NCBI GenBank assembly: GCA_964596525.1
Contig: CAZQUL010000001.1
Span: 332,830-396,829 of the forward strand
Source of the DNA: an uncultured Gammaproteobacteria bacterium
GTDB lineage: Bacteria; Patescibacteriota; Patescibacteriia; Magasanikbacterales; GWA2-37-8
Direction: 5' to 3'
DNA: 64,000 nt
Position numbers and translations under genes: made by a program. Under the pieces are notes generated by a model, which was given only the letters and a program-made list of their open reading frames with translations, had not been told where the DNA came from and did no database searches. Positions 9,246 through 53,703 of this stretch are shown here, piece by piece. Positions within the stretch are counted from its first letter, which is position 1, and each line of letters opens with the position of its first letter.

Positions 9246-10703
9246 TTATACTCGTTTGCTCTTCGTAAGGCGGATAATGATGGGAGTTGCGAAAAATTCA
9301 AATTCTTCACGCAAGCGGTTTTGCAGATAGTGGACGTACGAGACGTGGACCGACGTTTTGCTTTTGATGAACAGCTCGAACATGGGCGGGTTGGTGCGCA
9401 CCTGTTTGAAACCGAGCAGTTTGGGGTGACGTACGCCTTTGCCGGAACTGGGGCGATGATGACGCGTGGCACGCTGCAAGAACAGATTGAGTTCGGCTTG
9501 CGGCACGGTTGTCGTGCGGCCGCGGTACGCCTGCTTGATGAGCGGGAAAATCTGGTGCACGCGATAACCGGTTTTAGCGCTTACAAACACGATGGGAGCG
9601 AATGACAGATGCGGGAAAAGACCGTACATCTTGTCCTTAATCTGATTGCGGAATTCATCGGAATTATCATCGCTTTCATCCCACTTGTTGATGACGAGGA
9701 TAACGCTCTTGGTATGTTCGCGTAAAAGCCCTGCGAGTTGTTGGTCTTGGTCAGAAACCGGTTCGGTGGCGTCGATAACAAGCAGTACCACATCGCAGCG
9801 GTCAATGGTTTCGATGCTTTTGCCGATGCCTTTTTTTTCGAGTTCGCCTGCGACACGTGATTTGCGGCGAATACCGGCTGTGTCGATGAAGAGCAGATGA
9901 GTAGAGGAAGTTTTTTTGCTTTTCTTTTTTGGCTTCTCATCGGTTTCATCGTCAGATGCTCTTTCGATCGGTTCTTCGTCCGGATCGTTTTCTACTTCAA
10001 CGAGCACGTCGTGCGGTTCGCGCGTCGTGTGCGGCATATCGCTCACCACTACGCGATCTTCGCCGATGAGTTTGTTGAAGAGCGACGATTTGCCCACGTT
10101 CGGTTTGCCCATGATGGCGACTTTGATGGGGTCGAAATCCGTGAGCGTTTTGGGATTTTTTTTGATTTTGCGCAAATCGGTATAAATTTTGTCGAGCACG
10201 TCGCCCACGTGGGAACCGGTCGTGGCCGAAACCGCGAAGGGTACCCCGAGTCCGAGTGCGCGCCATTCCGGATCGTGGACGCGTTGGCTAAGAACGGCAG
10301 TGTCGGCTTTGTTGGCGACAAAGAGGCGGGGTTTGTGGGGATAATGTTTGTTGAGCCAGCGAGCCAGTTCTTTTTCTTGGGGCAATAACCCGTCTTGGAT
10401 GTCGGTAACGAAGACAATGATATCCGCTTCGGCGATGGCAAGCTCAGTTTGTTTGATGATGTCGCTTTCGAGCAAGACGCGTTCTGAAAACGTGAGGCCG
10501 CCGGTATCCACGATGCGAAACTCCACGCCGCGCCACGAGGCGATGGCCATGTTGCGGGTGCGCGTCGTGCCGGGGATAGAAGAAACGAGGGCGCGCTCTT
10601 CTTCGACAATGCGGTTAAACAAGGTGGATTTGCCAACGTTAACGCGGCCGACGAGGGCGACGGTCGGGATGTTGAGATCGACGATGCGGGCGGGAGTAGG
10701 CAT
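9246..10703 (-). CDS. der: ribosome-associated GTPase Der (EngA) with an acidic/lysine-rich insertion
   Basis: Two GTPase domains (GRVNVGKST and GKPNVGKSS Walker A; DTGG/DTAG) plus a C-terminal KH-like domain. Insertion DPDEEPIERASDDETDEKPKKKSKK lies between the domains. Confidence 0.9.
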   Translation of the reverse strand: MPTPARIVDLNIPTVALVGRVNVGKSTLFNRIVEEERALVSSIPGTTRTRNMAIASWRGVEFRIVDTGGLTFSERVLLESDIIKQTELAIAEADIIVFVTDIQDGLLPQEKELARWLNKHYPHKPRLFVANKADTAVLSQRVHDPEWRALGLGVPFAVSATTGSHVGDVLDKIYTDLRKIKKNPKTLTDFDPIKVAIMGKPNVGKSSLFNKLIGEDRVVVSDMPHTTREPHDVLVEVENDPDEEPIERASDDETDEKPKKKSKKTSSTHLLFIDTAGIRRKSRVAGELEKKGIGKSIETIDRCDVVLLVIDATEPVSDQDQQLAGLLREHTKSVILVINKWDESDDNSDEFRNQIKDKMYGLFPHLSFAPIVFVSAKTGYRVHQIFPLIKQAYRGRTTTVPQAELNLFLQRATRHHRPSSGKGVRHPKLLGFKQVRTNPPMFELFIKSKTSVHVSYVHYLQNRLREEFEFFATPIIIRLTKSKRV

Positions 10704-19319: not shown

Positions 19320-19649
19320 ATGATCAAGAACAAGAGCCTCGTCGCCACCCTCTTCGCCGCTGGCCTCTCGATCGCCCTCCAGTTCTCGCTCAAGACCAGC
19401 AACACGAATGGCGCGCCGAGCCTCACCTTCCAGACCGCCTCTGCCGAGAGCGAGCCCATGCCGGGCCCTGGCAACAAGCCCAAGGGTGCCGTGTGCAGCT
19501 CCTCCACGGAGTGCGCTGGAGTGTTGGTCTGCAAGGGCGGCGCTTGCGACGACCCGGAGGAGCCTTCGTACTGCAAGTACTCGGATGAGAGCTGCTTCCA
19601 CGACAACGAGTGCTGCAGCAGCGACTGCACGTCTGGTGTCTGCAAGTAG
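19320..19649 (+). CDS. small secreted cysteine-rich protein (109 aa, 10 Cys, knottin-like C-terminal domain)
   Basis: AAGGAG Shine-Dalgarno. Signal peptide LVATLFAAGLSIALQ. C-terminal CSSSTECAGVLVCKGGAC...CKYSDESCFHDNECCSSDCTSGVCK. Two hairpins follow at about 19665-19682 and 19697-19756. Confidence 0.7.
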   Translation: MIKNKSLVATLFAAGLSIALQFSLKTSNTNGAPSLTFQTASAESEPMPGPGNKPKGAVCSSSTECAGVLVCKGGACDDPEEPSYCKYSDESCFHDNECCSSDCTSGVCK

Positions 19650-20193: not shown

Positions 20194-20484
20194 ATGAACA
20201 AGAACCTGGGCTCTGGCAACGTCTACCCGACCACCCCGACCACCGCCGACAAGAAGGGCATCCTCGCGATGCTCCTCGCGATCCTCGTGGTCGCGGTCCT
20301 CGGCATCCCCGAGCGCAAGCCGGCGGCGGCCAAGCCGATCGCGAAGCCCGCGGTAACGCAGATCGCGACGAGCGTCGCACGTGGAACGCCCTGCAAGACG
20401 GATCGTGACTGCGATCCGGAGGACATCTGCTACTATTCGCCGAAGAGCGGGATGAGCTACTGCGAGGAAGCGGTCACCGACTAG
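20194..20484 (+). CDS. small membrane-anchored/secreted protein with C-terminal Cys module (96 aa)
   Basis: AAGGAG Shine-Dalgarno. Hydrophobic segment ILAMLLAILVVAVLGIP. C-terminal GTPCKTDRDCDPEDICYYSPKSGMSYCEE. Confidence 0.6.
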   Translation: MNKNLGSGNVYPTTPTTADKKGILAMLLAILVVAVLGIPERKPAAAKPIAKPAVTQIATSVARGTPCKTDRDCDPEDICYYSPKSGMSYCEEAVTD

Positions 20485-20687: not shown

Positions 20688-21128
20688 GTGAAATGCCCCC
20701 AAGTGATTCTGTTGCTTTTGCTGTGTGCTGCTCCAGTAGCAGCTGAGGAAGCTGAAGTTGCCTGCCCTGTCCAGCAGGGCATGCAGCCGCAACATGGTGA
20801 TCTATGTCGCATTACATATAACGAAATAAGCAGGCTGAGACGAGAGATAGAAGCGCTCTCGCGCAATAAAATTCCTTCCTTGAAGGAGGCTTGCAGAGAG
20901 ACCGTACGCGTGAATGATCCGCTTATCGCGCAAGTACTTTTGGACGCGGAGCGTCTTTATCGCCTGAAACAGTACAAGTACGCTGTCGCTGCCGAAGGCC
21001 GAGCACACGCGCTGCAGGAAGAGATTGCAACTGTTTGCGCATTGCTCAGTGGCGCAGAACATGTGCTAGTGTATTATCGCCAACAAAAAGAGAATCTGGA
21101 GCGCATGCGCGAGAGTTGCAACTGCTAG
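20688..21128 (+). CDS. secreted helical protein, 4 Cys (146 aa)
   Basis: GGAGG then GTG start. Signal VILLLLLCAAPVAAEE. Terminator hairpin GCCCGAC-gtat-GTCGGGC follows. Confidence 0.65.
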   Translation: MKCPQVILLLLLCAAPVAAEEAEVACPVQQGMQPQHGDLCRITYNEISRLRREIEALSRNKIPSLKEACRETVRVNDPLIAQVLLDAERLYRLKQYKYAVAAEGRAHALQEEIATVCALLSGAEHVLVYYRQQKENLERMRESCNC

Positions 21129-25632: not shown

Positions 25633-25706
25633 GGGCCAATAGCTCAGCTGGCTAGAGCGCTTCCATGGCATGGAAGAGGTCCGGGGTTCAAATCCCCGTT
25701 GGTCCA
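25633..25706 (+). tRNA. tRNA-Ala (anticodon GGC)
   Basis: Manual fold with the Ala identity pair G3:U70. Anticodon loop ATGGCAT. T-arm CGGGG-TTCAAAT-CCCCG. Confidence 0.9.
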
Positions 25707-25719
25707 CAAAATCAAAAAA

Positions 25720-25739
25720 CAGCCGCGCGGCTGTTTTTT
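25720..25739 (+). terminator. rho-independent terminator after tRNA-Ala
   Basis: CAGCCGC/GCGGCTG palindrome followed by TTTTTTG. Confidence 0.75.
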
Positions 25740-25886
25740 GATTTCCATAAGAAAATTCGGAAAGTGTGGTTTTATCTTGACCATTTCCGCGGTCTCTGTT
25801 ACATTTCGCTGTTCCGTGAGGTGCGCTGCAACTGGCTACGGATGTTCGTTGACCTGCTCCTTGAAGGGCAGAAGGAGAGAGAAAAA

Positions 25887-27620
25887 ATGAAGAAATTGAC
25901 CTGGAAGGACTATATTCTCTTTGTTGTCGCTGCGTGTATGGCCGGAGCGTTGTATTACCACGAGGCAGTGGTGAAGCACGATCCGTATGCCAACTTCGTC
26001 GAAGTGGCGCAGGATATCCGCGACCACAAGGTGAAAGAGATTGTTGTGCAGAGTGAAAAGCTGGAGGTGAAGTTCACAACTGGTGCGAAACGCCTGTACC
26101 CCAAGGAAGGTGCTGAGAGTTTTGAGCATCTGGCGGAGCGTTACAAGATTTCGCCGGAGATGCTCGCTGGCATCAAGATCGTGAACGAATCTTACAAAGG
26201 TTTTTTCGATCTGCTGACGTTCCTTATTACGCTCGCCATCCCAATTGGGGCATTCTTCTTCTTGAGAAGGACAGGGGTCAGAGGGATGAGGATTGAGCAG
26301 GTGATGAAATGCAACGTCACCTTTGCCGATGTGGCCGGACTTGCGCCGGCTAAGGCCGAGCTCACCGACATTGCGGCGTGCCTCGAGCGTAAGGACGATT
26401 GCGCCCGCTACGATATTCGGCTGCCGCGCGGTATCTTGTTTACCGGCGAGCCGGGTACGGGCAAGACCCTTCTGGCCCGAGCACTCGCCGGCGAGACGAA
26501 AGCGGCGTTTTTCACCGTCAGTGGGTCGCAGTTCGTGGATACATTCGTCGGTTCGGGTGCGCGCAATGTGCGCAACCTGTTTGATGCGGCGCGCGCTGCG
26601 GTGGTCAAGACCAAGCACCCGGCGATCATCTTCATCGATGAGATCGACGCTGTGGGTGTGAAAAGGACAGATCATCCGCTAGGAAATGACCAGCGCGACC
26701 AGACGCTCAACGAGCTCCTCGTCGCGATGGATGGTCTTGTCTCCGACAACGCCATCGTCGTCATCGCGGCCACCAACCGGCCCGACATGCTCGACGGGGC
26801 GCTCCTGCGTCCGGGCCGCTTCGATCGTAAGATCCATCTGGAACTACCGGACCGTGCGGCTCGCCGTGCCATCCTCGAGATCCACGTGCGCGAGAAGCCG
26901 CTCGCGTCGAGCGTCGCGCTCGATACCATCGCCGCTCGTACCGCCGGATTTTCGGGCGCCCAGCTCGAGAGTCTGGTGAACGAAGCGGCCATCCTCATGA
27001 TCCGTGCCGGAGAGATCCACATCACGGGCCGCATCATGGATGAAGCGATGGACAAGGTGCTCGTGGGTGTGGGCAACGCGCGGGTCGTAACGGGAGAAGA
27101 GCGGGAACGCGTCGCTTATCACGAAGCCGGACATGCGATCGCGGCGCATTTCTTGCCGCACTGCAAAGGCCTGCGCCGCGTTTCCATCGTGCCACGCGGC
27201 ATGACCGGCGGTTTCACCATGGTGACACCGGAGCATGAGAACTCGCTGCGTACCCGTGCCGAGCTTGAGGAGCAGCTCGTCATGATCATGGCTGGCTACG
27301 CTGCCGAGGTGAGTAAGTATGGCGAGAGCGGCCTTTCTACGGGCTGCACTAACGACCTCGAGCGTGCGGATTCCCTGGTGCGGTACATGGTGACGAGGTG
27401 GGGAATGGTGCCGGAGGTGGGCTTCTTCACCCCGGCGCAGGGCGTGTCCGAGGAGCGGCGAGAGCGGGTGGACGAAGCGGTGAAAGACCTGCTCACGCAG
27501 GCGCGAAATCGCGCCGCTGAACTGCTTGCTACACATAGCGCGCTTTGGATGCGTCTCGCCCATGAGCTTATGAACAAGGAGACGCTCAACGAGGCAGAAC
27601 TCACCGTGCTCCTTGGTTAG
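25887..27620 (+). CDS. ftsH: ATP-dependent zinc metalloprotease FtsH (paralogue 1)
   Basis: AAGGAG Shine-Dalgarno. Two TM helices flanking a periplasmic domain. Walker A GEPGTGKT, Walker [38 protein letters not shown] zinc site. Confidence 0.9.
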   Translation: MKKLTWKDYILFVVAACMAGALYYHEAVVKHDPYANFVEVAQDIRDHKVKEIVVQSEKLEVKFTTGAKRLYPKEGAESFEHLAERYKISPEMLAGIKIVNESYKGFFDLLTFLITLAIPIGAFFFLRRTGVRGMRIEQVMKCNVTFADVAGLAPAKAELTDIAACLERKDDCARYDIRLPRGILFTGEPGTGKTLLARALAGETKAAFFTVSGSQFVDTFVGSGARNVRNLFDAARAAVVKTKHPAIIFIDEIDAVGVKRTDHPLGNDQRDQTLNELLVAMDGLVSDNAIVVIAATNRPDMLDGALLRPGRFDRKIHLELPDRAARRAILEIHVREKPLASSVALDTIAARTAGFSGAQLESLVNEAAILMIRAGEIHITGRIMDEAMDKVLVGVGNARVVTGEERERVAYHEAGHAIAAHFLPHCKGLRRVSIVPRGMTGGFTMVTPEHENSLRTRAELEEQLVMIMAGYAAEVSKYGESGLSTGCTNDLERADSLVRYMVTRWGMVPEVGFFTPAQGVSEERRERVDEAVKDLLTQARNRAAELLATHSALWMRLAHELMNKETLNEAELTVLLG

Positions 27621-27668: not shown

Positions 27669-27787
27669 TAATTGCGTTCGATCCGACCATTACGCGTTTC
27701 TTTAAAGCTTGACTTTTTTGCCTTCTTAAGGTTTAGTATCCTGTTCCCTCCGCGGTGGAGGGCGGTTCGTTAACAAAGGAGGCTGTC

Positions 27788-29656
27788 GTGAAGGTGCCCA
27801 AGTTCAAGTTCCGGATGGATTATCTGATTCTGCTCTTGTTTGTGATCTCGCTCGGCCGTAGCACGTATGTCGAGATGTGGAAGTTACCACATAACTCATA
27901 TAACAATTTCAGCGAGCTGGCGGATGACATCCGCGCTGGAAAGGTCCTCAAGATAACGGTAGAGCCGAACCGCCTGACGGTCCAGAAGTCCGGCGGCGTA
28001 ACGAGGTTCCTCAGCAAGGATAACGATACGTTTGAAACGCTCTCCATGCGCTACAAGCTCGAGACATCGCATCTTGATCGGGTTACGATTGCTCACAAGG
28101 GCGAACGTGGCTGCGCGGCGTCGACGAGCGACGTGTTGTTTTCGCCGGGAGCGCTGCTCGCTCTCTACTTCTTATTCGGCCGTCGGTCTCCGTCGTCCGA
28201 GGAGAATAAGGAAGAGAAAGACGATGCTGGTGACGATAAGGACAAGAAAGAGAAGCCGCGCGGGTTGGAAGGGTTCTTCCAGCGCGTCAAGGAAGCTCTC
28301 AATCCCAAAGGAATCGAGATCGAAGAGGCGACCGAGTGTGCGACGACCTTCGCCGATGTGGCCGGTCTCGAGCCGGCCAAGGAGGAGCTCCGCGACATCA
28401 TCGTCTATATCAAGAATCCGGAGTCGTTCGAGCGCCACAACATCCGGCTGCCGCGTGGCATTCTCTTCACCGGCGATCCGGGGACGGGCAAGACGCTCCT
28501 CGCCCGTGCACTCGCCGGCGAGCTCAAGGCATCGTTTTTTACCACCAGCGGCTCGCAGTTCGTAGACGTGTTCGGCGGATTGGGAGCGCGCAACGTGCGT
28601 GATCTGTTCGCCCGGGCGCGGCAGGCCGTGGAACAGAAGAAACATCCGGCTGTTATCTTCATCGACGAGATCGATGCGGTCGGCGGCGCGCGTAGCGACA
28701 ATCCGTCGTTCCATCCGGAACGGGATCAGACGCTCAACCAGCTGCTCGTCGAGATGGATGGACTCAAGAAACAGGCGGGCATCATCGTGATCGCGGCCAC
28801 CAACCGGCCGGATATGCTCGACCCGGCACTCTTGCGACCTGGCCGTTTCGATCGCAAGATTCATCTCGAGCTCCCTGACCGGGCGGCGCGGTTCGATATC
28901 CTAACGATCCACGCCCGACAGAAGCCGCTCGCCCCAGACGTTTCGCTCCTCGACATCGCCGCTCGTACGGCTGGCGTGTCCGGCGCGCAGCTCGAGAGCC
29001 TGATGAACGAAGCCGGAATCCTCATGCTGCGCCAAAACGAGACGGTGATCACGAACGAGATGATCGCCGAAGCTACGGACAAGGTGCTCATGGGCGTCGG
29101 CAACGGTCGGATCCTCACGCCCGAAGAGCGCGAGCGTACGGCCTGCCACGAAGCCGGTCACACCCTCGTCGGGTATGCACTTGATCACTGCGATCCGGTG
29201 CGCCGCGTTTCCATCGTAGCGCGCGGCGAGGCCGGCGGCTTCACCATGGTCGCGCCCGAGCATGATGATCCGTCGCATACCAAGGAGCAGCTCGAGGATA
29301 TCCTGGCGATGACCATGGCCGGCTATGCCGCCGAGGTCAGTAAGTATGGCGAGAGCGGTCTCTCGACCGGCGCCGCAAGCGATCTCGAGCGGGCCGAGAA
29401 GCTGGCGTGGTACATGGTGACCACCTGGGGAATGAAGCGCGAGGTCAGTTTTTTCACCGATATCGAGCGCGCTTCCGAAGCGCGCATTCAGATGATCGAG
29501 AAGACGGTGAACGAACTACTCACCACTGCCTACGGTCGGGCGTTCGAGCTCCTCAAGAAGCACGAGCTCAAGTGGAAGAACGTGGCCGATGCTCTCATTG
29601 AGAAGGAAGTGCTGGATGAGGATGATCTCGAGCGGATGCTCGATCAGCTTGATTAG
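27788..29656 (+). CDS. ftsH: ATP-dependent zinc metalloprotease FtsH (paralogue 2) with Lys/Asp/Glu-rich linker
   Basis: AGGAGG then GTG 27788; the ATG at 27755 is an alternative start. Walker [15 protein letters not shown]. Insertion [24 protein letters not shown] after TM2. Confidence 0.9.
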
Positions 29657-46274: not shown

Positions 46275-46316
46275 ATACGCCCTATCGTTGACAGGGCGTA
46301 TGATTTTTGATATATT
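46275..46316 (+). promoter_or_regulatory. terminator hairpin with an embedded sigma70 promoter
   Basis: ATACGCCCT-atcgTTGACA-AGGGCGTAT followed by GATTTTT, then TATATT 17 nt after the TTGACA. Confidence 0.5.
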
Positions 46317-46451: not shown

Positions 46452-47681
46452 ATGAGCACGAATTTCGAGAATCTGGTCGTTCCGGAGAAGGACGTGAAGG
46501 CTTTCGGCGCTTCTCTGTGCCGACTCTTGAGGCTCGATCTCAAGGCTGCTGAAGCAGCAACCGCCCACATCTTCCCTGAAGGGACTGAGTTCCAGCACGT
46601 CATCGGTCAGATGGCCGATGAGCTACCCCGGGCTCTGAAGGAAGCCAAGGTGGAGGTGAAGAATCGGCACTTCCTGAAGGATGCCATTCCTGTCCTCAAT
46701 CTCTTCCGTCCCGGCATGGCCATCTGCAAGGAGTGCGGCTGCCTACCGATTTGGCGTGTGAGCGGGGCCCTGGTGGTGCGGTCCGTCGGCGAGACCTGTC
46801 CGATTCCGGAGTGCGGCCGCGTCCTTACCGCGCGCGCGACCGTGGCGGTGACCTTCAACTGGTACAAGCTCGAGATGGTGCCGGACACGGATGACAACCA
46901 TATCCTCACCATCGGCAGCAGCAACATCCCGGTGACCCGCGCCGCGGCCATCATGAATCGTCTGAACGATCGCGGTGGCCTTCATCATCAGGTGCAAGAG
47001 GTGATGGAGCACTTCGGGCTCGTCGTCCCGGACGATCTGCCGTACTTCGTCGGTGCGGTGTTCAGCACTCAGCGGCGCACGTACGAAGAGAAGCCGCTTC
47101 GTGCCGTCCTGAGCCTGAGCGCCAAGCTCTTCGATACGGATCTTACCACCCTCAACGAGCTCGAGGCGTGGGCGCTGGCGGCAGTCAACTTTAAGAAGCA
47201 GGCCACCCGCCGGGTCGAAGACATGCAGCTGCCGCCGTCTCCCCAGGTGCCGCCCGCTCCGGTATCCTTACCCAAGGGAAAAAGAGCGTTTCGTTCCTTG
47301 GTGCTAGGCTTGCTCGGGACTGCGCTGCAGCTGAATGACGACTTCGATGCTTTTGTTACCAAGTATTTTCCCCAGACGCATCAACTTCTTCCTGTTGATT
47401 TTCTGGAGAAAAGGAATTTTTTGGTTGACAAACACGGTCTGCGCGAGGTCTACCGCCTTATGCTCCAAAGCGTGAAAATCGAGGAGTGGCATCTTGTCAT
47501 GGTGCTGCGGTGGAACTTCAAGGACTACGAACCGCTGCATGCCTTTGTGAATCGTTACTTCCCGGCAGCACTGCCTCGCGTCAAGGGTCAATACGGCATT
47601 GATGCGCAAAGCGACGCTCTCGTGCAATATGCGGGCGTCCCGGCCATGCTCAAGGCGCTCGAGGCCGAGTTCTCGGCCTAG
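46452..47681 (+). CDS. hypothetical cytoplasmic protein (409 aa) with CxxC...CxxxC zinc-ribbon-like motif
   Basis: GAGGTGA Shine-Dalgarno. No signal peptide. CKECGC...CPIPECG. Roughly 140-nt structured leader upstream. Terminator GCAGCCC-tcc-GGGCTGC downstream. Confidence 0.6.
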   Translation: MSTNFENLVVPEKDVKAFGASLCRLLRLDLKAAEAATAHIFPEGTEFQHVIGQMADELPRALKEAKVEVKNRHFLKDAIPVLNLFRPGMAICKECGCLPIWRVSGALVVRSVGETCPIPECGRVLTARATVAVTFNWYKLEMVPDTDDNHILTIGSSNIPVTRAAAIMNRLNDRGGLHHQVQEVMEHFGLVVPDDLPYFVGAVFSTQRRTYEEKPLRAVLSLSAKLFDTDLTTLNELEAWALAAVNFKKQATRRVEDMQLPPSPQVPPAPVSLPKGKRAFRSLVLGLLGTALQLNDDFDAFVTKYFPQTHQLLPVDFLEKRNFLVDKHGLREVYRLMLQSVKIEEWHLVMVLRWNFKDYEPLHAFVNRYFPAALPRVKGQYGIDAQSDALVQYAGVPAMLKALEAEFSA

Positions 47682-47817
47682 ACCGCGCCCTGCATTCGTC
47701 TGATGCTCCCTGCATCACCGCAGCCCTCCCGGGCTGCTTTAATTTTACTCATTTTTGGTTGGTATATATCTCCAGTAATGCATATTCAACATCTGTATTC
47801 CATGGTATTATGGTGCC

Positions 47818-48786
47818 ATGGCTACCGTACCTCAACGTGCCAACAACCGGACGCCCGACGACGAAGCGGCGATTGCCGCTGATTTGGCGCAGGCGCGTCG
47901 TTCCGAAGAAAGTGTTTTTGACAGCAAAACTCCGGCTAATGATAACGCGCTTCCGGCAAATGCGTTCGATAATGATGTGCCAGCCAATGATAATGCCGTT
48001 GCGGCACCACGTTCCGGTTCTGCCGCCGCCGACTACCTTAATGAGCTCAACCGAACGCCCCGCGCTGCCAACGTACCGCTTGTTGCCAATGACAATGCCG
48101 CCCCCGTCGGTCTTTCCGCTGCTTACCAAGGCCCCACGTTCCAAGGCGAGGGAGACCCCTTGTTCTTCCCTACGCCCATCGACGGTGGAGACGGTGGATT
48201 GGACGCTGATGAAGACGAACAAGATGAAGAAAGTGGTTCAGGCCGTTCTTTCGACGAAGATGGCGAAGATGATGATGAAGATGAAATGATGGTACAAACC
48301 ACCGGGCCCTCACCCGAGAATTTCTTACCTGCCCTGCAGGAGGTGGAGCAGCGTCTACAAGACGCGCAGGAAGCTGGTGAACGTATTTCCAAACAACGTG
48401 ATAGTTATTACAATCGCACCGTAAAACCGCTTAAACGGGCTATGCTTCGTTCGGTCGCGATCGATACCGCACGCGCGCTGCGCAACTATACGGGGCTTGC
48501 GGTACCGACGTGGTGGTGGACCATAATCGGTGCTATAATAGATATCCTGGCGGTATTTCCGATAATCATCATTTTGTATTTTTCGGGCGCTGCCAAAGGG
48601 AAATTTACCCGCACCACGCTCAAAGATTACCGTTTCGCGCAGAATCGCCTTAAACAATTCGAAAAAAATAAAGCGCGGGCCGAAGAAGAAGTTATTGCTC
48701 TTGAGCAAGAACGGGCCGTGCTCATGGAGCAGATTATGATGCTGCAACAGCAACAACAACAGCAGCAGCAACTTCCACCCTCGTAA
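47818..48786 (+). CDS. low-complexity membrane protein (ANDNA repeats, acidic tract, C-terminal TM and poly-Gln)
   Basis: Repeats PANDNALPANAFDNDVPANDNA. D/E-rich block. TM WWWTIIGAIIDILAVFPIIIILYF. Terminal QQQQQQQQQQ. No Shine-Dalgarno. Confidence 0.45.
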   Translation: MATVPQRANNRTPDDEAAIAADLAQARRSEESVFDSKTPANDNALPANAFDNDVPANDNAVAAPRSGSAAADYLNELNRTPRAANVPLVANDNAAPVGLSAAYQGPTFQGEGDPLFFPTPIDGGDGGLDADEDEQDEESGSGRSFDEDGEDDDEDEMMVQTTGPSPENFLPALQEVEQRLQDAQEAGERISKQRDSYYNRTVKPLKRAMLRSVAIDTARALRNYTGLAVPTWWWTIIGAIIDILAVFPIIIILYFSGAAKGKFTRTTLKDYRFAQNRLKQFEKNKARAEEEVIALEQERAVLMEQIMMLQQQQQQQQQLPPS

Positions 48787-48827: not shown

Positions 48828-50075
48828 ATGTCCGAAACCGTCAAACGCGTCCTCCTTATCGTTGGGCTTTTGGCCGTGGCCGGTCTCATTGGATATGGTA
48901 TTTACTATTTTGCCATCGTGCGCCCGAGCCAAGAGGACGTAGCGCCTGGCGAAGTGGTCACCCCCGGTACCGGCACTGGTTTGCCCACAGCACCGCGCCG
49001 CACCTCAACGGTTGATGTCGGCACACCCACCACACCTGTAACCCCTGGTACAGGCGGCACTACGGTTCCCACCACGCCTGGCGGTGCGTTTTATCAGCCC
49101 ACGCCGGTACGCCAGCTCGCTTCCACGACACCTAGCTTCCTCTCCATTACGCCAAGCGGCCGCGCCCGTTACCACGATCTTACTAACGGCAAGTTTTACC
49201 GCATTTTGCCCGATGGCAGCGTCCGCGCCCTCTCGGACAAAGAATTTTTCAATGTCCAAAGCGTCACCTGGGCTCCGTCAAGCGATAAGGCAGTCATTAC
49301 CTATCCGGATGGCTTCAAAACGCTCTATAATTTTGAAACTCAGCGCCAGGTAACCCTGCCAGAACACTGGACCGATTTTTCATTCTCCCCGGACGGTTCG
49401 CAAATCGCTGCCAAAAGTCTTGGACTCTCGCGTGAAAACCGCTGGCTTGTAACCTTTAACGATGATGGTACGGGCACGCAGCTTATCGAACCGCTCGGCG
49501 ATTTTGCCGATCGCGTTACCGTGAGTTGGTCCCCGAGCCGTCAGACCGTGGCTTTTTCGCAGACCGGCGAGCCGATCGGCTATGACCGTCGCCAGATTCT
49601 CCTCATTGGTCAACGCGGAGAGAATTTCAAGCCGCTCACGGTGGAAGGCCTTAACTTCCAACCGTCATGGTCGCCGACAGGGCGCAAACTGCTCTACAGC
49701 ATCGACAGTGTCCGCACCAACTTCAAACCAGAACTCTGGATCACCGATGCCTACGGCGATTCGATCGATAATAACCGTCAATCACTCAAGCTCAATACCT
49801 GGGCCAATAAATGCGCTTTTGGCGGCGACGATACTACGCTGTTTTGTGCAGTACCACGTGAATTGCCCGACGGGGCCGGTCTTTCACCCGAACTGGCCAT
49901 GGCTTCGGCTGACGATGTTTTCAAGATCGATCTCAAAACCGGTTCGCGCTCCGTTATCAATCTTGGTGAGCAGGACTATCGCATTGCGAACATCAACTTT
50001 GACCGCCAGAGCAATCGCCTTATCTTTACCGACGTGGGTTTTGGTGGCGTCTTTCAGGTGGGTTTGACCGAATAG
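48828..50075 (+). CDS. membrane-anchored TolB-like beta-propeller protein
   Basis: N-terminal TM, Pro/Thr-rich linker, then repeated FSPDG/SWSP motifs (PD40/WD40-like blades). Confidence 0.6.
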   Translation: MSETVKRVLLIVGLLAVAGLIGYGIYYFAIVRPSQEDVAPGEVVTPGTGTGLPTAPRRTSTVDVGTPTTPVTPGTGGTTVPTTPGGAFYQPTPVRQLASTTPSFLSITPSGRARYHDLTNGKFYRILPDGSVRALSDKEFFNVQSVTWAPSSDKAVITYPDGFKTLYNFETQRQVTLPEHWTDFSFSPDGSQIAAKSLGLSRENRWLVTFNDDGTGTQLIEPLGDFADRVTVSWSPSRQTVAFSQTGEPIGYDRRQILLIGQRGENFKPLTVEGLNFQPSWSPTGRKLLYSIDSVRTNFKPELWITDAYGDSIDNNRQSLKLNTWANKCAFGGDDTTLFCAVPRELPDGAGLSPELAMASADDVFKIDLKTGSRSVINLGEQDYRIANINFDRQSNRLIFTDVGFGGVFQVGLTE

Positions 50076-50101
50076 CCTTCTTAGCCTAGCTCTTCGTTTT
50101 T

Positions 50102-50761
50102 ATGGAATTCTCTTCCGAACACAAACGTTTCTATATTGCCGGTGCGGTTTTAGTAGCGATTCTGCTTATTATTTTTTTACGTCAGATCGTACGCACGAGT
50201 TCCATTGCCGTAACTCGCACCGAAGAGCGTGTCGTTAGCGAAGCGACGTATCCTATTTCCTACCCGCGCGGCGAACCGGCGTTTGGCAATCCGGGCGCGC
50301 CGGTAACCGTGGCGGTTTTTGGGGATGCCCTTACCGATGACAGTCGCGAAGTGGTGCAAACCGTGCGCGAAGTGGTGCGACGCAATCCGCGAGCGCTGCG
50401 CCTCGTATGGAAAGATATGCCTAAAAAAGGCCTTTTTTCGGACCATATCGTAGCGCACGAAGCGCTCTACTGCGCGCAAAAGCAAGATCGTTTTTGGGAT
50501 ATGGCCGATGAAATTTACGCTCGCCAAGCCGTAAAACAGGAAGCGCTCACCACTATTGCGACCAACCTGGGGCTCAACGTAGAACAGTTCACCACCTGCT
50601 TGGCATTAACTGAAACGCATGATACGCTCAGGCTTCGGCGTCAGGCGGCCGATGATCTGGGTATTAGTCGCGTGCCGGAGATTTTCATCAACAACAAACG
50701 CATCACGCTTATGGATGGGCTGGATCTGAAGAGCATGCTCGAAGAAGTGATTGCGCCTTAA
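50102..50761 (+). CDS. DsbA-like thioredoxin-fold protein lacking the CXXC active site
   Basis: N-terminal TM. Thioredoxin/DsbA topology (VTVAVFGD...HEALYCAQKQDRFWDMADEIY...ISRVPEIFIN), but LTDD sits where CXXC is expected. Confidence 0.55.
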   Translation: MEFSSEHKRFYIAGAVLVAILLIIFLRQIVRTSSIAVTRTEERVVSEATYPISYPRGEPAFGNPGAPVTVAVFGDALTDDSREVVQTVREVVRRNPRALRLVWKDMPKKGLFSDHIVAHEALYCAQKQDRFWDMADEIYARQAVKQEALTTIATNLGLNVEQFTTCLALTETHDTLRLRRQAADDLGISRVPEIFINNKRITLMDGLDLKSMLEEVIAP

Positions 50762-50782
50762 TCTTTTTGTGTCTCGACGAGT

Positions 50783-52285
50783 ATGAGTACACGTACGCTA
50801 GTGGCTCGAATCCTTATCGCGCTCGGTGCAGTGGTTGGTGTCGCGGGTTTTTCTTCTGCTGTTGATGCGGCCGGGTGTTATTGCGTGGGAGAACAGAATC
50901 TTTGCATCACCGAAAATAACCAGTGCACCGAAAGTCCTTACGAGCGTTGTTTTAGTCAAACTGCAGGCGGGGAGCCGGTTACTAAAGCTGAAGACTGTGC
51001 TGATTTTAAGAAAAATGGTCTCAAGCAAACCTATCAGGCTAGCGGTTCTCCGGTGACAGTAGAGGCGCGATTCGATACCTGTACGTACAGCGTAAGCAAT
51101 GATTGTTCCGAAGCGCGGAAATCTGCCGACGATGCTGCTATTGCCGGAGAAGCTGATGCTGATGCGGAGAAGGAAAAAGAATTCGAAGACGAACAGGAAG
51201 AGGCTCGTGCCAATCAGGCCCAACAGCTTCAGATTCGCAAACCGGTGCTTAACATCCTCATCCCCAATCTCACGTTTAGTGATATTCGTACTAGTACGAT
51301 TGATGATGAAGGGTATGTGCAGATTCCGTGGATCGGCGAATATGTGGCTGCGCTCTACAGTTTGGCGGTATCCATCGCGAGCATTTTGGCTGTTATCCTT
51401 GTCATTCGCGAGGGTGTGCGCATCATTATGTCGGGCGGTGGAGACGGAAAAATCGAGGGTTACCGCAATATCGGCCGCATTGTTGCGGGTGTTATTCTGG
51501 CCTGGAGCTCGTATGTTATCCTCTACAACGTCAATGCTAATTTGGTGAGTTTCAAACCGCTCCAGGTGCGCTACGCTGAAGGCGGTCCGATCGTCGTTGA
51601 TGCGGCGGCTGAAGATGCGGTGGATAGCGTGGGCGGACGTAATTATACGGGCAGCGTCTTTGTTCCGCCTGGAAACGGTGAAAGCAATGTGCCGTACTAC
51701 GCGCAGTGGGAAGGTCCATGGGCCAAGAAAAAACCCGGTGATCCGGAATGGCCCCTTAGCCAGGCGCAGCAAGGGCGTACCGATTGTACGACGATTCAGC
51801 AGCGTGGCTGCGGTCCGACAAGTTTGGCGATGGTGATGAACTATTACGGTGAAAAAGTGACGCCGCTTGATACGGGCCGCTGGGGGTTGGGTTGTACTGG
51901 TGCTTGGCAACCATGGGATACGTATAAGACGTTCTCGGATAAATGGCCGAGCCTTAAGATGGAAATTCTCAAAGTGCGCAAGTCCGATAAAGTAGCGATC
52001 CGTCAGAAGGTGCTGCAGTATCTTTCGCAGGGTAAACCACTCGTTTATAACTGCGCTCCGTGCGCCGGCCTTAACCGCGAGAACAACCCGGGCCGCACCT
52101 ACCGCGGTCACTATATGGTACTTACCCATATCATTACCCAGGGCGATGTGCTTGGCATGGACCCGAGCCAAGTATACGTCGGCGTTAACGATCCGGGTGC
52201 TAATGAAAAAAATCGCATCCGCAAAATGTCGCTTAAAAATATCATTGATAACTACGTTATTGCCGTCTACGTGGATAAGCGCTAG
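50783..52285 (+). CDS. secreted/membrane protein: Cys-rich N-domain, two-TM hairpin, C-terminal C39-like (papain-fold) peptidase domain
   Basis: Signal peptide. N-terminal CYCVGEQNLCITENNQC... Two TM helices at about residues 190-250. C-terminal GCGPTSLAMVMNYYG with a His in GHYMVLTH. Confidence 0.55.
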   Translation: MSTRTLVARILIALGAVVGVAGFSSAVDAAGCYCVGEQNLCITENNQCTESPYERCFSQTAGGEPVTKAEDCADFKKNGLKQTYQASGSPVTVEARFDTCTYSVSNDCSEARKSADDAAIAGEADADAEKEKEFEDEQEEARANQAQQLQIRKPVLNILIPNLTFSDIRTSTIDDEGYVQIPWIGEYVAALYSLAVSIASILAVILVIREGVRIIMSGGGDGKIEGYRNIGRIVAGVILAWSSYVILYNVNANLVSFKPLQVRYAEGGPIVVDAAAEDAVDSVGGRNYTGSVFVPPGNGESNVPYYAQWEGPWAKKKPGDPEWPLSQAQQGRTDCTTIQQRGCGPTSLAMVMNYYGEKVTPLDTGRWGLGCTGAWQPWDTYKTFSDKWPSLKMEILKVRKSDKVAIRQKVLQYLSQGKPLVYNCAPCAGLNRENNPGRTYRGHYMVLTHIITQGDVLGMDPSQVYVGVNDPGANEKNRIRKMSLKNIIDNYVIAVYVDKR

Positions 52286-52310
52286 AGTAGGATGAGCACG
52301 CTCATAACGT

Positions 52311-53654
52311 ATGGCAAACAAAAAAATAACTCCTCTTTTTGCCTGTACCAAATGCGGCGCCCAGTTCCAGAAATGGACTGGGCGCTGTTTGGAATGCGGC
52401 GCCTGGGGAACAGTAGAAGAAAGCGCGGCAGCATCTGGCACCGAACCGGTGGTGGCGCCCGGCGTAAAGAGTCTTGCAGTTACGCCGCTCTCTGCGGTAA
52501 CGAAAAGCGTAGTGGCGCGCCGTAGTACAAATGTGTCCGAACTGGACCGTGTGCTTGGGGGAGGTATCGTGCCGGGAAGCTTGATTCTTCTGGGGGGAAG
52601 TCCCGGTATTGGCAAATCCACTCTATCGCTCCAAATCGCGTTGTCTATCCCGGGGACGCTCTATGTATCGGGCGAGGAATCGGTAGAACAAGTGAAACTC
52701 CGTTCTGAACGCCTGGCATCCATACCCTCCGATGTGCGGCTCCTTGCGGCTACCGCTCTTGATCCGATTGTTGCAACCATCATCGAACACAAACCGCCGC
52801 TTGTTATTCTTGACTCCATTCAGACGGTAGCTACTGCCGACGTTGAAGGCGAAGCGGGGAGTGTAAGCCAGATCCGCGCTTCGACGGTGAAACTTCTCGA
52901 AGTTGCCAAAACACATCATATCCCGATCATCATCATCGGCCATGTTACCAAAGACGGCAGCGTGGCTGGTCCCAAAACACTCGAACACCTGGTTGATACC
53001 GTACTTTATTTCGAGGGCGACCGGCATCATGCGTATCGACTGCTGCGCGCTACCAAAAATCGCTTCGGCGCTACCGACGAAGTGGGTATGTTTGAAATGA
53101 ATGAAAATGGTCTGGCCGAAGTAAAAAATCCCTCTGCCGCCCTTCTTACTGAGCGTAACTTAGCGACCGCTGGAAGCGTATTAACGTGCCTTATGGAGGG
53201 TACACGACCGATGCTTGTCGAGGTGCAGGCGCTCGTGACGCGTACGGCATTCGGGTATCCGGTACGCAAAGCGAGCGGTTTTGACCTTAATCGCCTGCAC
53301 GTGCTTCTTGCTGTGCTCCAAAAACGCGCCGGACTGCCGCTTGAGCAATACGACGTACACGTTAATATCGTCGGTGGCCTTGAAGCCGATGAGCCGGCGG
53401 CGGATTTGGCGGTGGCGCTTGCGGTGGCGAGCAGTTATAAGGATAAAGTACTGGGTAATGATTTGGCAGCGTTCGGGGAAATCGGTTTGGGCGGCGAAAT
53501 CCGGCCTGTAGCGCAAACCGACAAACGGCTTAAAGAATGCGAACATCTGGGGCTCAAGCGCGTGCTTTTACCCGGCGCGAAGCTAGAACTCAAGAAAGGT
53601 CCGCTCCAGCTCGTCACGATCGGGAATTTAAACGAGATTATCAAGCATACATAA
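52311..53654 (+). CDS. radA: DNA repair protein RadA (Sms)
   Basis: N-terminal C4 zinc finger CTKCGAQF..CLECGAW. RecA-like GSPGIGKST. KNRFG motif. Lon-like C-terminal domain. Confidence 0.95.
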   Translation: MANKKITPLFACTKCGAQFQKWTGRCLECGAWGTVEESAAASGTEPVVAPGVKSLAVTPLSAVTKSVVARRSTNVSELDRVLGGGIVPGSLILLGGSPGIGKSTLSLQIALSIPGTLYVSGEESVEQVKLRSERLASIPSDVRLLAATALDPIVATIIEHKPPLVILDSIQTVATADVEGEAGSVSQIRASTVKLLEVAKTHHIPIIIIGHVTKDGSVAGPKTLEHLVDTVLYFEGDRHHAYRLLRATKNRFGATDEVGMFEMNENGLAEVKNPSAALLTERNLATAGSVLTCLMEGTRPMLVEVQALVTRTAFGYPVRKASGFDLNRLHVLLAVLQKRAGLPLEQYDVHVNIVGGLEADEPAADLAVALAVASSYKDKVLGNDLAAFGEIGLGGEIRPVAQTDKRLKECEHLGLKRVLLPGAKLELKKGPLQLVTIGNLNEIIKHT

Positions 53655-53675
53655 ATTTCGCCCTATAAGAATTTT

Positions 53676-53697
53676 AAAAAGCCCGTAAGGGCTTTTT
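53676..53697. terminator. bidirectional terminator
   Basis: AAAAAGCCC-gtaa-GGGCTTTTT. Confidence 0.8.
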
Positions 53698-53703
53698 GGC
53701 TTT

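Follow-up and report, generated by a model that had tools for sequence, protein, structure and literature searches.

A clpC-radA operon of Candidatus Magasanikbacteria probably encoding a cell-wall-remodelling module with a pilin-hairpin-anchored hydrolase

The locus analysed here raises the question of what three consecutive genes, coding for a beta-propeller, a DsbA-like protein and a membrane protein with a papain-fold peptidase domain, might do together in an ultrasmall bacterium of the CPR/Patescibacteria, belonging to Candidatus Magasanikbacteria. The three ORFs are located on the + strand of the 64-kb stretch of DNA under investigation (hereafter, the window), at positions 48828-50075 (A, 415 aa), 50102-50761 (B, 219 aa) and 50783-52285 (C, 500 aa), and are separated by gaps of 26 and 21 nt, in agreement with the preliminary description. 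There, they were interpreted as an envelope operon, possibly involved in the maturation of Cys-rich peptides that are secreted; the envelope location is likely, and the maturation role finds no support (see below). With a probability of roughly 0.6, what Candidatus Magasanikbacteria conserve between clpC and radA is a module that remodels the cell wall from outside the cytoplasm, and protein C is its pilin-hairpin-anchored hydrolase.

The analysis of gene order revealed that the block clpC-(TM protein)-A-B-C-radA is kept across Candidatus Magasanikbacteria in at least 11 other genomes/contigs, i.e., in the loci showing the order clpC-x-PD40-Thioredoxin_4-C-radA (L003/L008, L005/L010, L007, L009, L011, L012, L013, L017, L018, L020, and L021). 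The operon is thus conserved, and since the same order is maintained in so many genomes, A, B, and C can be considered real genes rather than chance ORFs. The radA gene (52311..53654, +) starts 25 nt 3' of C, flanks the module in every relative, and is probably co-transcribed with C; a consensus terminator scan disclosed no terminator-like site between the two. The same scan, which is the only source for both of the following sites, revealed a terminator-like hairpin 3' of radA (53674..53699, +; an 11-bp stem followed by a T-run), likely corresponding to the end of the unit, and another one upstream (47720..47737, +; a 7-bp stem, rich in GC, preceding a T-run), likely corresponding to its boundary on that side. 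Judging only from the short gaps and these consensus scans, the transcript probably comprises (TM coiled-coil protein)-A-B-C-radA. The gene lying before the upstream hairpin (46452-47681) is specific to the window.

On the basis of Pfam, AF2 and Foldseek, protein A (48828..50075, +) is a TM-anchored PD40-type beta-propeller, in which an N-terminal TM helix (residues 3-30) is followed by a Pro/Thr/Gly-rich disordered linker (32-87) and by the propeller itself (about 95-412). The match with Pfam PD40 (PF07676) reaches 32 bits (gathering cut-off 20.9, E 1.2e-7); the AF2 model (pLDDT 83) contains about 28 strands arranged in 7 blades, and its top Foldseek matches are Tricorn and 7-bladed propellers (E about 1e-10). 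The previous designation of this protein as TolB-like stands at the level of the PD40 repeats and of the envelope location, which are in common with TolB of the Tol-Pal system, but goes no further than that: the TolB equivalog HMM (TIGR02800) gave 29.4 bits versus a cut-off of 343, TolB has 6 blades instead of 7, its N-terminal alpha/beta domain is replaced in protein A by the TM helix and the disordered linker, and no tol or pal genes are located near the gene. For these reasons the identification with TolB was rejected, and protein A is a generic 7-bladed propeller. The group to which the organism belongs has been described as monoderm (PMC12857230). Protein A is the most conserved partner in the module; its Cys329/Cys340 pair is invariant, and it has at least 525 homologues, for which every source name stating a lineage is Magasanikbacteria. 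Membrane-tethered on a long flexible linker, it probably serves the hydrolase C either as a scaffold/regulator or as a subunit that binds the wall.

Protein B (50102..50761, +) is a TM-anchored Thioredoxin_4/DsbA(BdbD)-like protein, resembling the membrane-anchored Thioredoxin_4 architecture of BdbD of Bacillus. It matches both Thioredoxin_4 (PF13462; 41.3 bits, gathering cut-off 23.2) and DSBA (PF01323; 34.4 bits, cut-off 25.6), and retains the GNPGAP motif, a Cys124/Cys166 pair, and the cis-Pro loop, whose Pro192 is invariant among the orthologues. The absence of CXXC noted in the preliminary description was confirmed: the LTDD site (50330..50341, +; CTT ACC GAT GAC, encoding Leu77-Thr78-Asp79-Asp80) aligns with a CxxC that is present in 11/13 orthologues. 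It had been suggested that a canonical CXXC in the relatives would point to a sequencing artefact; the relatives do possess it, but the inference fails. LTDD is real because two independent assemblies (SRR11567528 and SRR11567520) show no difference in the window sequence, there is no frameshift, none of the alternative frames at the homologous site restoring CxxC, and the motif was lost independently in the window lineage and in one other lineage. Judging from these alignments, the CxxC-less protein B is the outcome of a recent, lineage-specific loss inside one orthologous group and not an old paralogue. B-type proteins would be BdbD/DsbA-like factors that help the exported, disulfide-rich regions of A and C to fold, the candidate clients being four cysteines of the peptidase domain, the Cys-rich N-domain of C, and the Cys pair of A. 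Since both catalytic cysteines have been lost, protein B of the window would be at most a redox-dead chaperone/adaptor, so that its earlier reading as a redox-inactive binding protein stays reasonable. At the level of the shared fold only, it can be compared with TraF/TrbB of the F-like T4SS, likewise an exported thioredoxin-fold protein beside a pilin-type Cys-rich envelope apparatus; TrbB and R27 TraF possess a CxxC, while F TraF is devoid of it and has a redox-independent role that is needed to extend the pilus (PMC11315126).

Concerning protein C, the domain calls previously made (signal peptide, Cys-rich N-domain, VirB2/TrbC-like hairpin, and C39-like papain fold) proved to be correct. 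The signal peptide, read from the sequence, covers 50783..50869 (+; residues 1-29, predicted cleavage after VDA), with a hydrophobic segment at 5-23 and an N-terminal helix in the structure model. It is followed (50870..51229, +) by a Cys-rich beta domain (about 30-110), including CYCVGEQNLCITENNQC (residues 32-48), and by an acidic low-complexity linker (about 111-149); the full-length model is of moderate quality (pLDDT 68.6) and places beta strands at 31-103 (pLDDT about 70). This N-domain is divergent but present in 7/12 family members, and absent in the other 5/12. The core (51230..51595, +; residues 150-271) is a T4SS_pilin (PF18895)/VirB2-like hairpin, in which a KPxLxIxIPxLxFSD...IPWIGEY lead-in is followed by TM1, an SGGGxxK loop predicted to be cytoplasmic, TM2, and LYNxNxxLVxF. 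The two hydrophobic helices are located at about 186-212 and 229-250 (184-212 and 230-248 as hydrophobic segments, 184-216 and 220-250 in the model), so that protein C displays the succession typical of pilins, i.e., a signal peptide and then two hydrophobic helices forming a hairpin around a short charged loop. Taken by itself, the window protein had no match to PF18895 at E<=1; in its family, PF18895 is matched by 10/12 members (best 5e-5) and TrbC (PF04956) by 4/12. A search with a profile of the core found 28,752 representatives; 11 of 90 representatives retrieved with this profile match PF18895 (best E 1.8e-25), and in one protein (P0028) the core-profile match overlaps the PF18895 match. 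On this family-level and profile evidence, the core may be regarded as pilin-like.

The C-terminal papain-fold domain of C (51686..52285, +; residues 302-500) matches Peptidase_C39_2 (PF13529, clan Peptidase_CA) with 56.5 bits (cut-off 24, residues 302-461, E 6e-15), as do all of the 12 family members; hence, the two HMM checks proposed for the locus, Peptidase_C39_2 and DsbA, both gave matches above the gathering cut-offs. The expected C39-like Cys/His dyad was found in the alignment of the 12 family members, where Cys343, His443, and Asn469/Asp470 are invariant; the corresponding codons are 51809-51811 (Cys343), 52109-52111 (His443), and 52190-52192 (Asp470), all on the + strand, and the first of them is embedded in GCGPTSLAMVMNYYG (residues 342-356). 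The conserved non-catalytic cysteines of the domain are 335, 371, 424, and 427. Both the Cys motif and the His motif can be aligned to those of 3erv and LahT150, and the top Foldseek match of the model is the peptidase domain of PCAT1 (probability 1.0, E 2.7e-3). Its position behind the signal peptide and both TM helices predicts an extracytoplasmic location for the domain.

The comparison with the relatives revealed that the pilin-like core carries different heads. In L018 a protein with VanY instead of C39_2 on the same core occupies the operon slot of C, while in L017 a paralogue carrying Amidase_2 stands in tandem behind the C39_2 protein; P0018 carries the core plus SLT and GDSL. A and B are unchanged with either head, C39_2 or VanY. 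In the domain census (n=90), the heads were VanY (14), Amidase_2 (10), SLT (9), C39_2 (4), NlpC/P60 (2), and M15_4, M15, M23, and Glucosaminidase (one each), the only other enzyme family being GDSL lipases (2-3). In about half of these 90 proteins no C-terminal domain could be recognised at E<=1e-5; the recognisable fused domains are nearly all peptidoglycan hydrolases. In an unrelated locus adjoining dnaA (L019), pilin-NlpC/P60 and pilin-SLT genes lie next to a homologue of A (27% identity, E 2e-26) keeping the same Cys pair.

Domain content, conservation of the catalytic residues, synteny, in-place domain replacement, and CxxC loss are direct observations. Protein C is most likely to be a pilin-hairpin-anchored cell-wall hydrolase, and not a bacteriocin-leader peptidase, because VanY replaces C39_2, an Amidase_2 paralogue occurs in tandem, and the recognisable heads in the census are nearly all peptidoglycan hydrolases; the exchange in place for VanY and the joining by the Amidase_2 paralogue in relatives also suggest that its substrate would be peptidoglycan. 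Protein C would be exported by Sec, with the hairpin in the membrane and, because its loop is short and predicted to be cytoplasmic, the Cys-rich N-domain and the catalytic domain would both face outward. The triad Cys343-His443-Asp470 would then cleave peptide stems or cross-links of peptidoglycan, in a manner functionally equivalent to the VanY, Amidase_2, SLT, NlpC/P60, M23, and glucosaminidase heads found in the same core position, and A, B, and C might cooperate physically. The wall cut by C could be either the cell's own or that of the host bacterium; in the former case, cutting could contribute to growth or make way for a T4SS/pilus. [quoted passage not shown]

It is possible, although rather unlikely, that the same biochemistry is directed at the wall of the epibiont's host, the pilin-like core putting C into a VirB2-type pilus/T4SS, or delivering it via this apparatus, so that the host wall would be confronted with the hydrolase together with the variable Cys-rich domain, in the manner of a polymorphic effector with exchangeable lytic heads. 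A conserved N-terminal core, exchangeable heads, and a variable/optional Cys-rich N-domain do resemble polymorphic toxins, and a VirB2-like pilin array and a T4SS are essential for the epibiotic growth of a Saccharibacterium (PMC10633639; PMC12857230). However, no co-varying immunity gene follows C, radA being located there instead, and A and B do not change with the head; the locus looks like a single-copy housekeeping-type operon with a strongly conserved A. Moreover, VirB4, VirB6, and VirD4 genes are absent from the window, T4SS ATPase/channel genes are absent from both the window and the flanks of the relatives, and a catalytic domain of about 200 aa per pilin subunit would be hard to fit in a VirB2 filament.

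Two further readings consider C39_2 as a protease. That it matures exported envelope proteins (pilin-like proteins, the linker of A, or C itself) seems very unlikely: the catalytic triad is intact, the closest relatives in sequence and fold are the C39 leader peptidases PCAT1, LahT150, and 3erv, and T4SS pilins are known to be matured by dedicated peptidases (e.g., RP4 TraF acting on TrbC), but this reading leaves unexplained both the non-proteolytic wall enzymes on the same core (Amidase_2, SLT, VanY, and glucosaminidase) and VanY in the operon slot. The original proposal, in which a surface module with a peptidase of the C39 bacteriocin-leader type matures the Cys-rich peptides at 18.9-21.7 kb, is largely refuted and retains hardly any probability. 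Small Cys-rich secreted ORFs do exist (19320-19649, 20194-20484, and 20688-21128), and PF03412 gives a weak match limited to 23 residues around the catalytic Cys (E 0.011); nevertheless, this match (16 bits) is below the cut-off of 22, Pfam disclosed no ABC-transporter domains in C, and its C39_2 domain is predicted outside the cell, whereas the C39 domains of PCAT transporters work on the cytoplasmic side. In addition, the small ORFs (19.3-21.1 kb) have ordinary Sec-type signal peptides instead of the double-glycine leaders for which a check had been proposed, are 30 kb distant, and are missing from the flanks retrieved on either side of the module in the relatives. The exchange for VanY and the tandem Amidase_2 paralogue also speak against maturation and for the preferred reading of C as a wall hydrolase.

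A putative cell-wall hydrolase of this kind can be compared with known systems. The C39 domains of PCAT1, ComA, and LahT have the papain-like fold and the Cys-His-Asp triad in common with C, as well as the GCG..SLAM and GH..VL motifs, but that of C lacks the transporter fusion, is exchangeable with peptidoglycan hydrolases, and has no double-glycine substrate genes among its neighbours (clpC, TM protein, propeller, DsbA-like, and radA). The VirB1-type hydrolases of monoderm T4SS (PrgK of pCF10, TraG of pIP501, and CwlT of ICEBs1) are membrane-anchored and modular as C is, and open the wall for an envelope machine by means of exchangeable SLT, CHAP/NlpC-P60, and LytM domains (cf. PMC12102498); unlike them, C has a VirB2/T4SS_pilin-like hairpin instead of a single TM helix as its anchor, a Peptidase_C39_2 head, and a gene embedded in a clpC-radA housekeeping operon with propeller and DsbA-like genes rather than among T4SS genes. 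In Patescibacteria, pilins of the VirB2-like type (PF18895) are widespread and abundant, often in arrays, and most of the genomes possessing them are without a recognisable VirB1 hydrolase (PMC12102498). Like C, these pilins have a signal peptide and, after it, a hairpin of two helices, the likeness being one of family-level HMM matches; however, those described are small, free-standing, and often near virB4, whereas C has 500 aa, no virB4 nearby, a conserved lead-in motif, and large domains, predicted to be extracytoplasmic, at both ends. We found no discussion of pilin-hydrolase fusions in the literature on Patescibacteria pilins/T4SS (including PMC12102498, PMC12857230, and PMC10633639). 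A bolder idea, which we regard as decidedly doubtful, is that Patescibacteria merged VirB2 and VirB1 in single polypeptides, and that a propeller-guided pilus with exchangeable lytic heads drills the host wall. Such subunits, with C39_2, VanY, amidase, SLT, or other heads, would form part of a conjugative-type pilus or sit at its tip. If true, this would account for the lack of VirB1 in most Patescibacteria with VirB2-like pilins, and tell what purpose the pilin/T4SS apparatus essential to epibionts serves.

Lastly, the first gene of the putative unit (47818..48786, +) encodes a TM/coiled-coil protein of 322 aa, with no family match in Pfam or PHROG. It comprises a disordered acidic N-terminal region, a coiled coil, a TM segment (residues about 229-257) that is long and hydrophobic and contains WWW, and a basic coiled coil with a poly-Q tail. 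The slot between clpC and the propeller gene is occupied in the relatives too, by TM/coiled-coil proteins of 142-393 aa (L003, L005, L017, and L018), but sequence conservation is poor; the L017 counterpart also has the NVPLV..NAPVGLSAAY and WWW motifs.

Three consecutive genes of the forward strand encode a PD40 propeller protein (A, 48828-50075, 415 aa), a Thioredoxin_4/DsbA-like protein (B, 50102-50761, 219 aa) and a protein joining a pilin-like hairpin to a Peptidase_C39_2 domain (C, 50783-52285, 500 aa). The best explanation is that they form a conserved envelope module centred on a putative pilin-hairpin-anchored peptidoglycan hydrolase (C), which would be accompanied by the propeller A and by a DsbA-like helper (B) that is presumably redox-dead in this genome; the wall cut by the module might be either the cell's own or that of a host. 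The genes are separated by only 26 nt (A-B) and 21 nt (B-C), and the three ORFs, their coordinates and all the peptide strings quoted in the preliminary description of this region were recovered. The operon is also conserved: a tblastn search of the window proteins against all the loci fetched from other genomes and contigs disclosed the order clpC-(variable gene)-A-B-C-radA in L003/L008, L005/L010, L007, L009, L011, L012 and L013, and likewise in L017, L018, L020 and L021. In the species-representative genome set the related loci carry the name Candidatus Magasanikiibacteriota. The best conserved protein of the module is A (50-68% identity to its relatives), followed by C (35-50%) and by B, the fastest evolving (26-41%).

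The gene located between clpC and A is constant in position and weakly conserved in sequence; in all its products a disordered N-region and a coiled coil accompany a single long hydrophobic segment. The window's version (U322, 322 aa, 47818-48786, + strand) ends with a run of nine glutamines and contains a long acidic low-complexity stretch, and the WWW motif of its TM segment is common to the L017 counterpart. A consensus scan disclosed terminator-like hairpins at 47720-47737 and 53674-53699 (both + strand) and none further between them, which suggests, though it is only suggestive, that U322-A-B-C-radA might be a single transcription unit. Between clpC and the module, only this genome contains an inserted 409-aa gene (46452-47681, + strand), which is without matches in Pfam, NCBIfam and PHROG; it harbors a zinc-ribbon-like CKECGC...CPIPEC motif, and the region's best sigma-70-like match (11/12, with TG) is its promoter-like site at 46288-46316 (+ strand).

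As for protein C, hydrophobicity and the AlphaFold model agree on the following layout: residues 1-29 form a signal peptide and residues 30-110 or so a Cys-rich domain rich in beta structure; an acidic linker of low complexity leads to two long helices (184-216 and 220-250), and an alpha/beta domain makes up the C-terminus. The most conserved part across paralogues is the core (residues 150-271), in which the order KPxLxIxIPxLxFSD...IPWIGEY, TM1, SGGGxxK, TM2, LYNxNxxLVxF can be recognized. The VirB2/TrbC-like hairpin proposed in the preliminary description finds support at the family level: the window's C alone did not match PF18895 in a Pfam scan, and among its close relatives 10/12 match PF18895 and 4/12 TrbC/VirB2. 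When the core profile was searched against 1.84 billion cluster representatives, 28,752 proteins matched at E<=1e-3, of which 418 reached E<=1e-30; in 90 proteins taken from the best matches PF18895 was found down to E 1.8e-25, and in P0028, a protein matched by the core profile, the two profiles match the same residues. The hairpin, together with a cleaved signal peptide, would place both flanking domains of C outside the cell, as in VirB2.

The C-terminal head of C matches Peptidase_C39_2 above the gathering score (Pfam, residues 302-461, E 6e-15). Cys343 (RGCGxTSLAM), His443 (GHY.VLT) and Asn469/Asp470 (VNDPG) are invariant in 12/12 sequences, as are Cys335, Cys371, Cys424 and Cys427, so that the C39-like papain fold with a downstream His, already recognized by eye, is borne out. 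A phmmer search of PDB with the single sequence gave no useful match; the family profile matched only 3erv, a putative C39-like peptidase, and the LahT leader-peptidase domain, through the Cys/His motifs, and Foldseek placed the PCAT1 peptidase domain on top for the full-length model (probability 1.0, E 2.7e-3), with papain-fold proteins next. The conserved catalytic residues and the profile and Foldseek matches thus indicate that the head belongs to the C39_2 family and is an intact papain-type cysteine peptidase. This might recall a canonical bacteriocin-leader peptidase, and a papain/C39-type domain is indeed shared with PCAT1 and LahT; however, PF03412 remains below cut-off, the ABC transporter fusion is missing in C, the head is predicted to be extracytoplasmic and double-glycine substrate genes were not found, so that the head does not qualify as such a peptidase.

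The decisive evidence on the function of the head is contextual. In L018 the protein in the C slot shares with C the signal peptide, the Cys-rich region and the core (64% identity in the core) and bears a VanY D-Ala-D-Ala peptidase head instead; in L017 a tandem paralogue carrying an Amidase_2 head comes after the C39_2 gene; and in P0018, a further protein with the core, SLT and GDSL domains are attached to it. Among 90 of the best core-profile representatives, the recognisable heads were VanY (14), Amidase_2 (10), SLT (9), C39_2 (4), NlpC/P60 (2) and M15_4, M15, M23 and Glucosaminidase (one each), with a few GDSL esterases. Since practically every recognisable partner of the core is a peptidoglycan hydrolase, the most economical reading is that the C39_2 head would also belong to this class; it would probably cleave stem peptides as an endopeptidase or amidase, as the related papain-fold enzymes CHAP and NlpC/P60 do. 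Consistent with this, two phage-lysin surveys class Peptidase_C39_2 (a classification rather than an assay) as an enzymatically active lysin domain in phages infecting Gram-positive bacteria (PMC8223927; PMC13284279); a search of the literature yielded no experiments showing that C39_2 acts on peptidoglycan.

Hence, the ORFs and domain calls of the preliminary description stand, and its functional guess, i.e., peptide maturation, is left unsupported, both by the failure of the bacteriocin-leader-peptidase tests and by the wall hydrolases found elsewhere on the same core. Its proposed link with the small Cys-rich ORFs at 19320-19649, 20194-20484 and 20688-21128 (+ strand) was also rejected: these possess Sec-type signal peptides and Cys-rich mature parts (as an example, CSSSTECAGVLVCKGGAC...CCSSDCTSGVCK), and no connection with the module was found. 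A free-standing 170-aa protein matching Peptidase_C39, C70 and C39_2 is encoded in L003 (1426-1938), a relative in which its gene lies 6 kb upstream of the module and has LemA and M48 peptidase genes as neighbours; none of the window ORFs scanned is its counterpart.

Protein A matches the PD40 repeat above the gathering score (Pfam) and TolB only below threshold in NCBIfam (29 bits vs 343). Its confident AlphaFold model (pLDDT 83), built on a 30-sequence alignment, shows a TM helix (3-30), a disordered Pro/Thr/Gly linker (32-87) and about 28 strands, for which Foldseek retrieved Tricorn and many 7-bladed propellers (E ~1e-10); a TolB identity was accordingly abandoned in favor of a 7-bladed propeller. 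At least 525 homologues exist, nearly all of about 410 aa, and their source names read Candidatus Magasanikbacteria or Patescibacteria; Cys329 and Cys340 are invariant. Outside this operon, in L019, another Patescibacteria contig, two pilin-hydrolase genes with NlpC/P60 and SLT heads are followed by an A homologue (27% identical, E 2e-26) that keeps the KC.F..D..TLFCAVP motif, with rnpA, yidC and dnaA adjoining. On the basis of this neighbourhood, A can be regarded as a dedicated partner of pilin-anchored hydrolases, for which it might act as a scaffold, a regulator or a wall-binding protein. The position of the L019 cluster beside rnpA/yidC/dnaA fits the reported near-origin placement of T4SS genes. 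In the same contig a called gene (2-1345) joins an endonuclease-like domain, DUF559, to T4SS_pilin and NlpC/P60; lying at the contig end, it may result from a merged or truncated gene call.

Protein B matches Thioredoxin_4 and DSBA above gathering scores (Pfam) and, below threshold, a thioredoxin-like lipoprotein family and DsbA in NCBIfam. It is a TM-anchored Thioredoxin_4 protein with the GNPGAP lead-in, the cis-Pro loop (Pro192) and a conserved second Cys pair (124/166), in which, as the preliminary description had noticed, Leu-Thr-Asp-Asp (nt 50330-50341) replaces the CxxC. The motif is present in 11/13 of the orthologues examined (CAEC, CSRC, CSDC, CAEC, CESC, CEKC, CNEC, CAQC, CAKC, CKEC and CSEC), and SSAS takes its place in the L018 orthologue (9292-9948), in the genome with the VanY-headed protein.

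Different explanations might account for these substitutions. A sequencing artefact had been anticipated in case relatives carried a canonical CXXC; they do, yet B is 100% identical in the separate assemblies of runs SRR11567528 and SRR11567520 and in the NCBI genome, and an artefact was rejected. A frameshift is opposed by the uninterrupted ORF and by the lack of any other frame giving CxxC at the homologous position, a 'WCKPC' lying about 8 codons downstream in another frame being a by-product of the GAAGTGGTGC repeat. Decay of B as a pseudogene is unsupported, the B/A identity ratio being in line with that of CxxC-bearing pairs (B is 41% identical to L017, where A is 65%). The identical assemblies, the absence of a frameshift and the lack of unusual divergence thus argue for a real and recent loss of redox activity in an otherwise maintained protein. 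A single loss shared with L018 was rejected as well: since the CxxC is kept in the window's nearest relatives (L017, L020 and L021) and the window and L018 are not sisters, the two losses are independent. The conserved cysteines are still present in the likely clients of B. It is known that in F-like T4SS TrbB has a CxxC and TraF has the fold without it and a redox-independent role in pilus extension (PMC11315126); by analogy, the CxxC-less B might resemble TraF, and the repeated loss of the motif in this otherwise conserved partner offers a natural test, on a small scale, of what thioredoxin-fold proteins do independently of redox chemistry.

CPR/Patescibacteria are ultrasmall epibionts that cannot live on a host without their envelope machines (T4SS, VirB2-like pilins). 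PF18895 VirB2-like pilins are widespread in Patescibacteria and often arrayed, and most genomes harboring them lack a recognisable VirB1 (PMC12102498); Southlakia epibionticum requires its pilin array and T4SS, whose function is unknown, for epibiotic growth (PMC10633639; PMC12857230; PMC11665869). The 28,752 cluster representatives would delineate a large family joining a pilin-like hairpin to interchangeable peptidoglycan hydrolases and paired, at least in part, with a dedicated propeller, a testable candidate for cutting the wall, own or host's, and for the 'missing VirB1'. A search for described pilin-hydrolase fusions found nothing, and the accessible portions of the literature on patescibacterial pilins and T4SS contain no description of pilin core-wall hydrolase fusions, of the propeller partner or of this operon. 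Since precomputed domain tables already show the fusion, it is, as far as those portions go, unreported rather than undetectable. The reassignment of the Peptidase_C39_2 domain, on contextual grounds, from 'bacteriocin processing' to probable cell-wall hydrolysis is relevant to automatic annotation.

The window is ordinary chromosome. It contains tmk, gatB, engA, a LytR-CpsA-Psr gene, topA, a SpoIID-domain gene, two ftsH, MoxR/VWA, pth, dprA, an ABC-F gene, a sigma factor gene, clpC, radA, a histidine kinase gene, recG and three tRNA genes; a PHROGs scan of five proteins gave zero matches, and T4SS genes, VirB4, VirB6 and VirD4 among them, were looked for across the 64 kb without finding any. 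The two ftsH genes (25665-27620 and 27755-29656, + strand) are tandem full-length paralogues (AAA + Peptidase_M41) with a tRNA-Ala gene upstream. A 607-aa antisense ORF (50798-52621, - strand) spans all of gene C and reaches into radA; it was rejected as a real gene, since ten orthologous loci lack it, their longest open stretches on the antisense strand measuring 96-157 aa, and it exists because TTA/CTA/TCA codons are almost missing in this genome (1 in the 500 codons of C). Comparable long shadow ORFs lie over clpC, topA and other genes.
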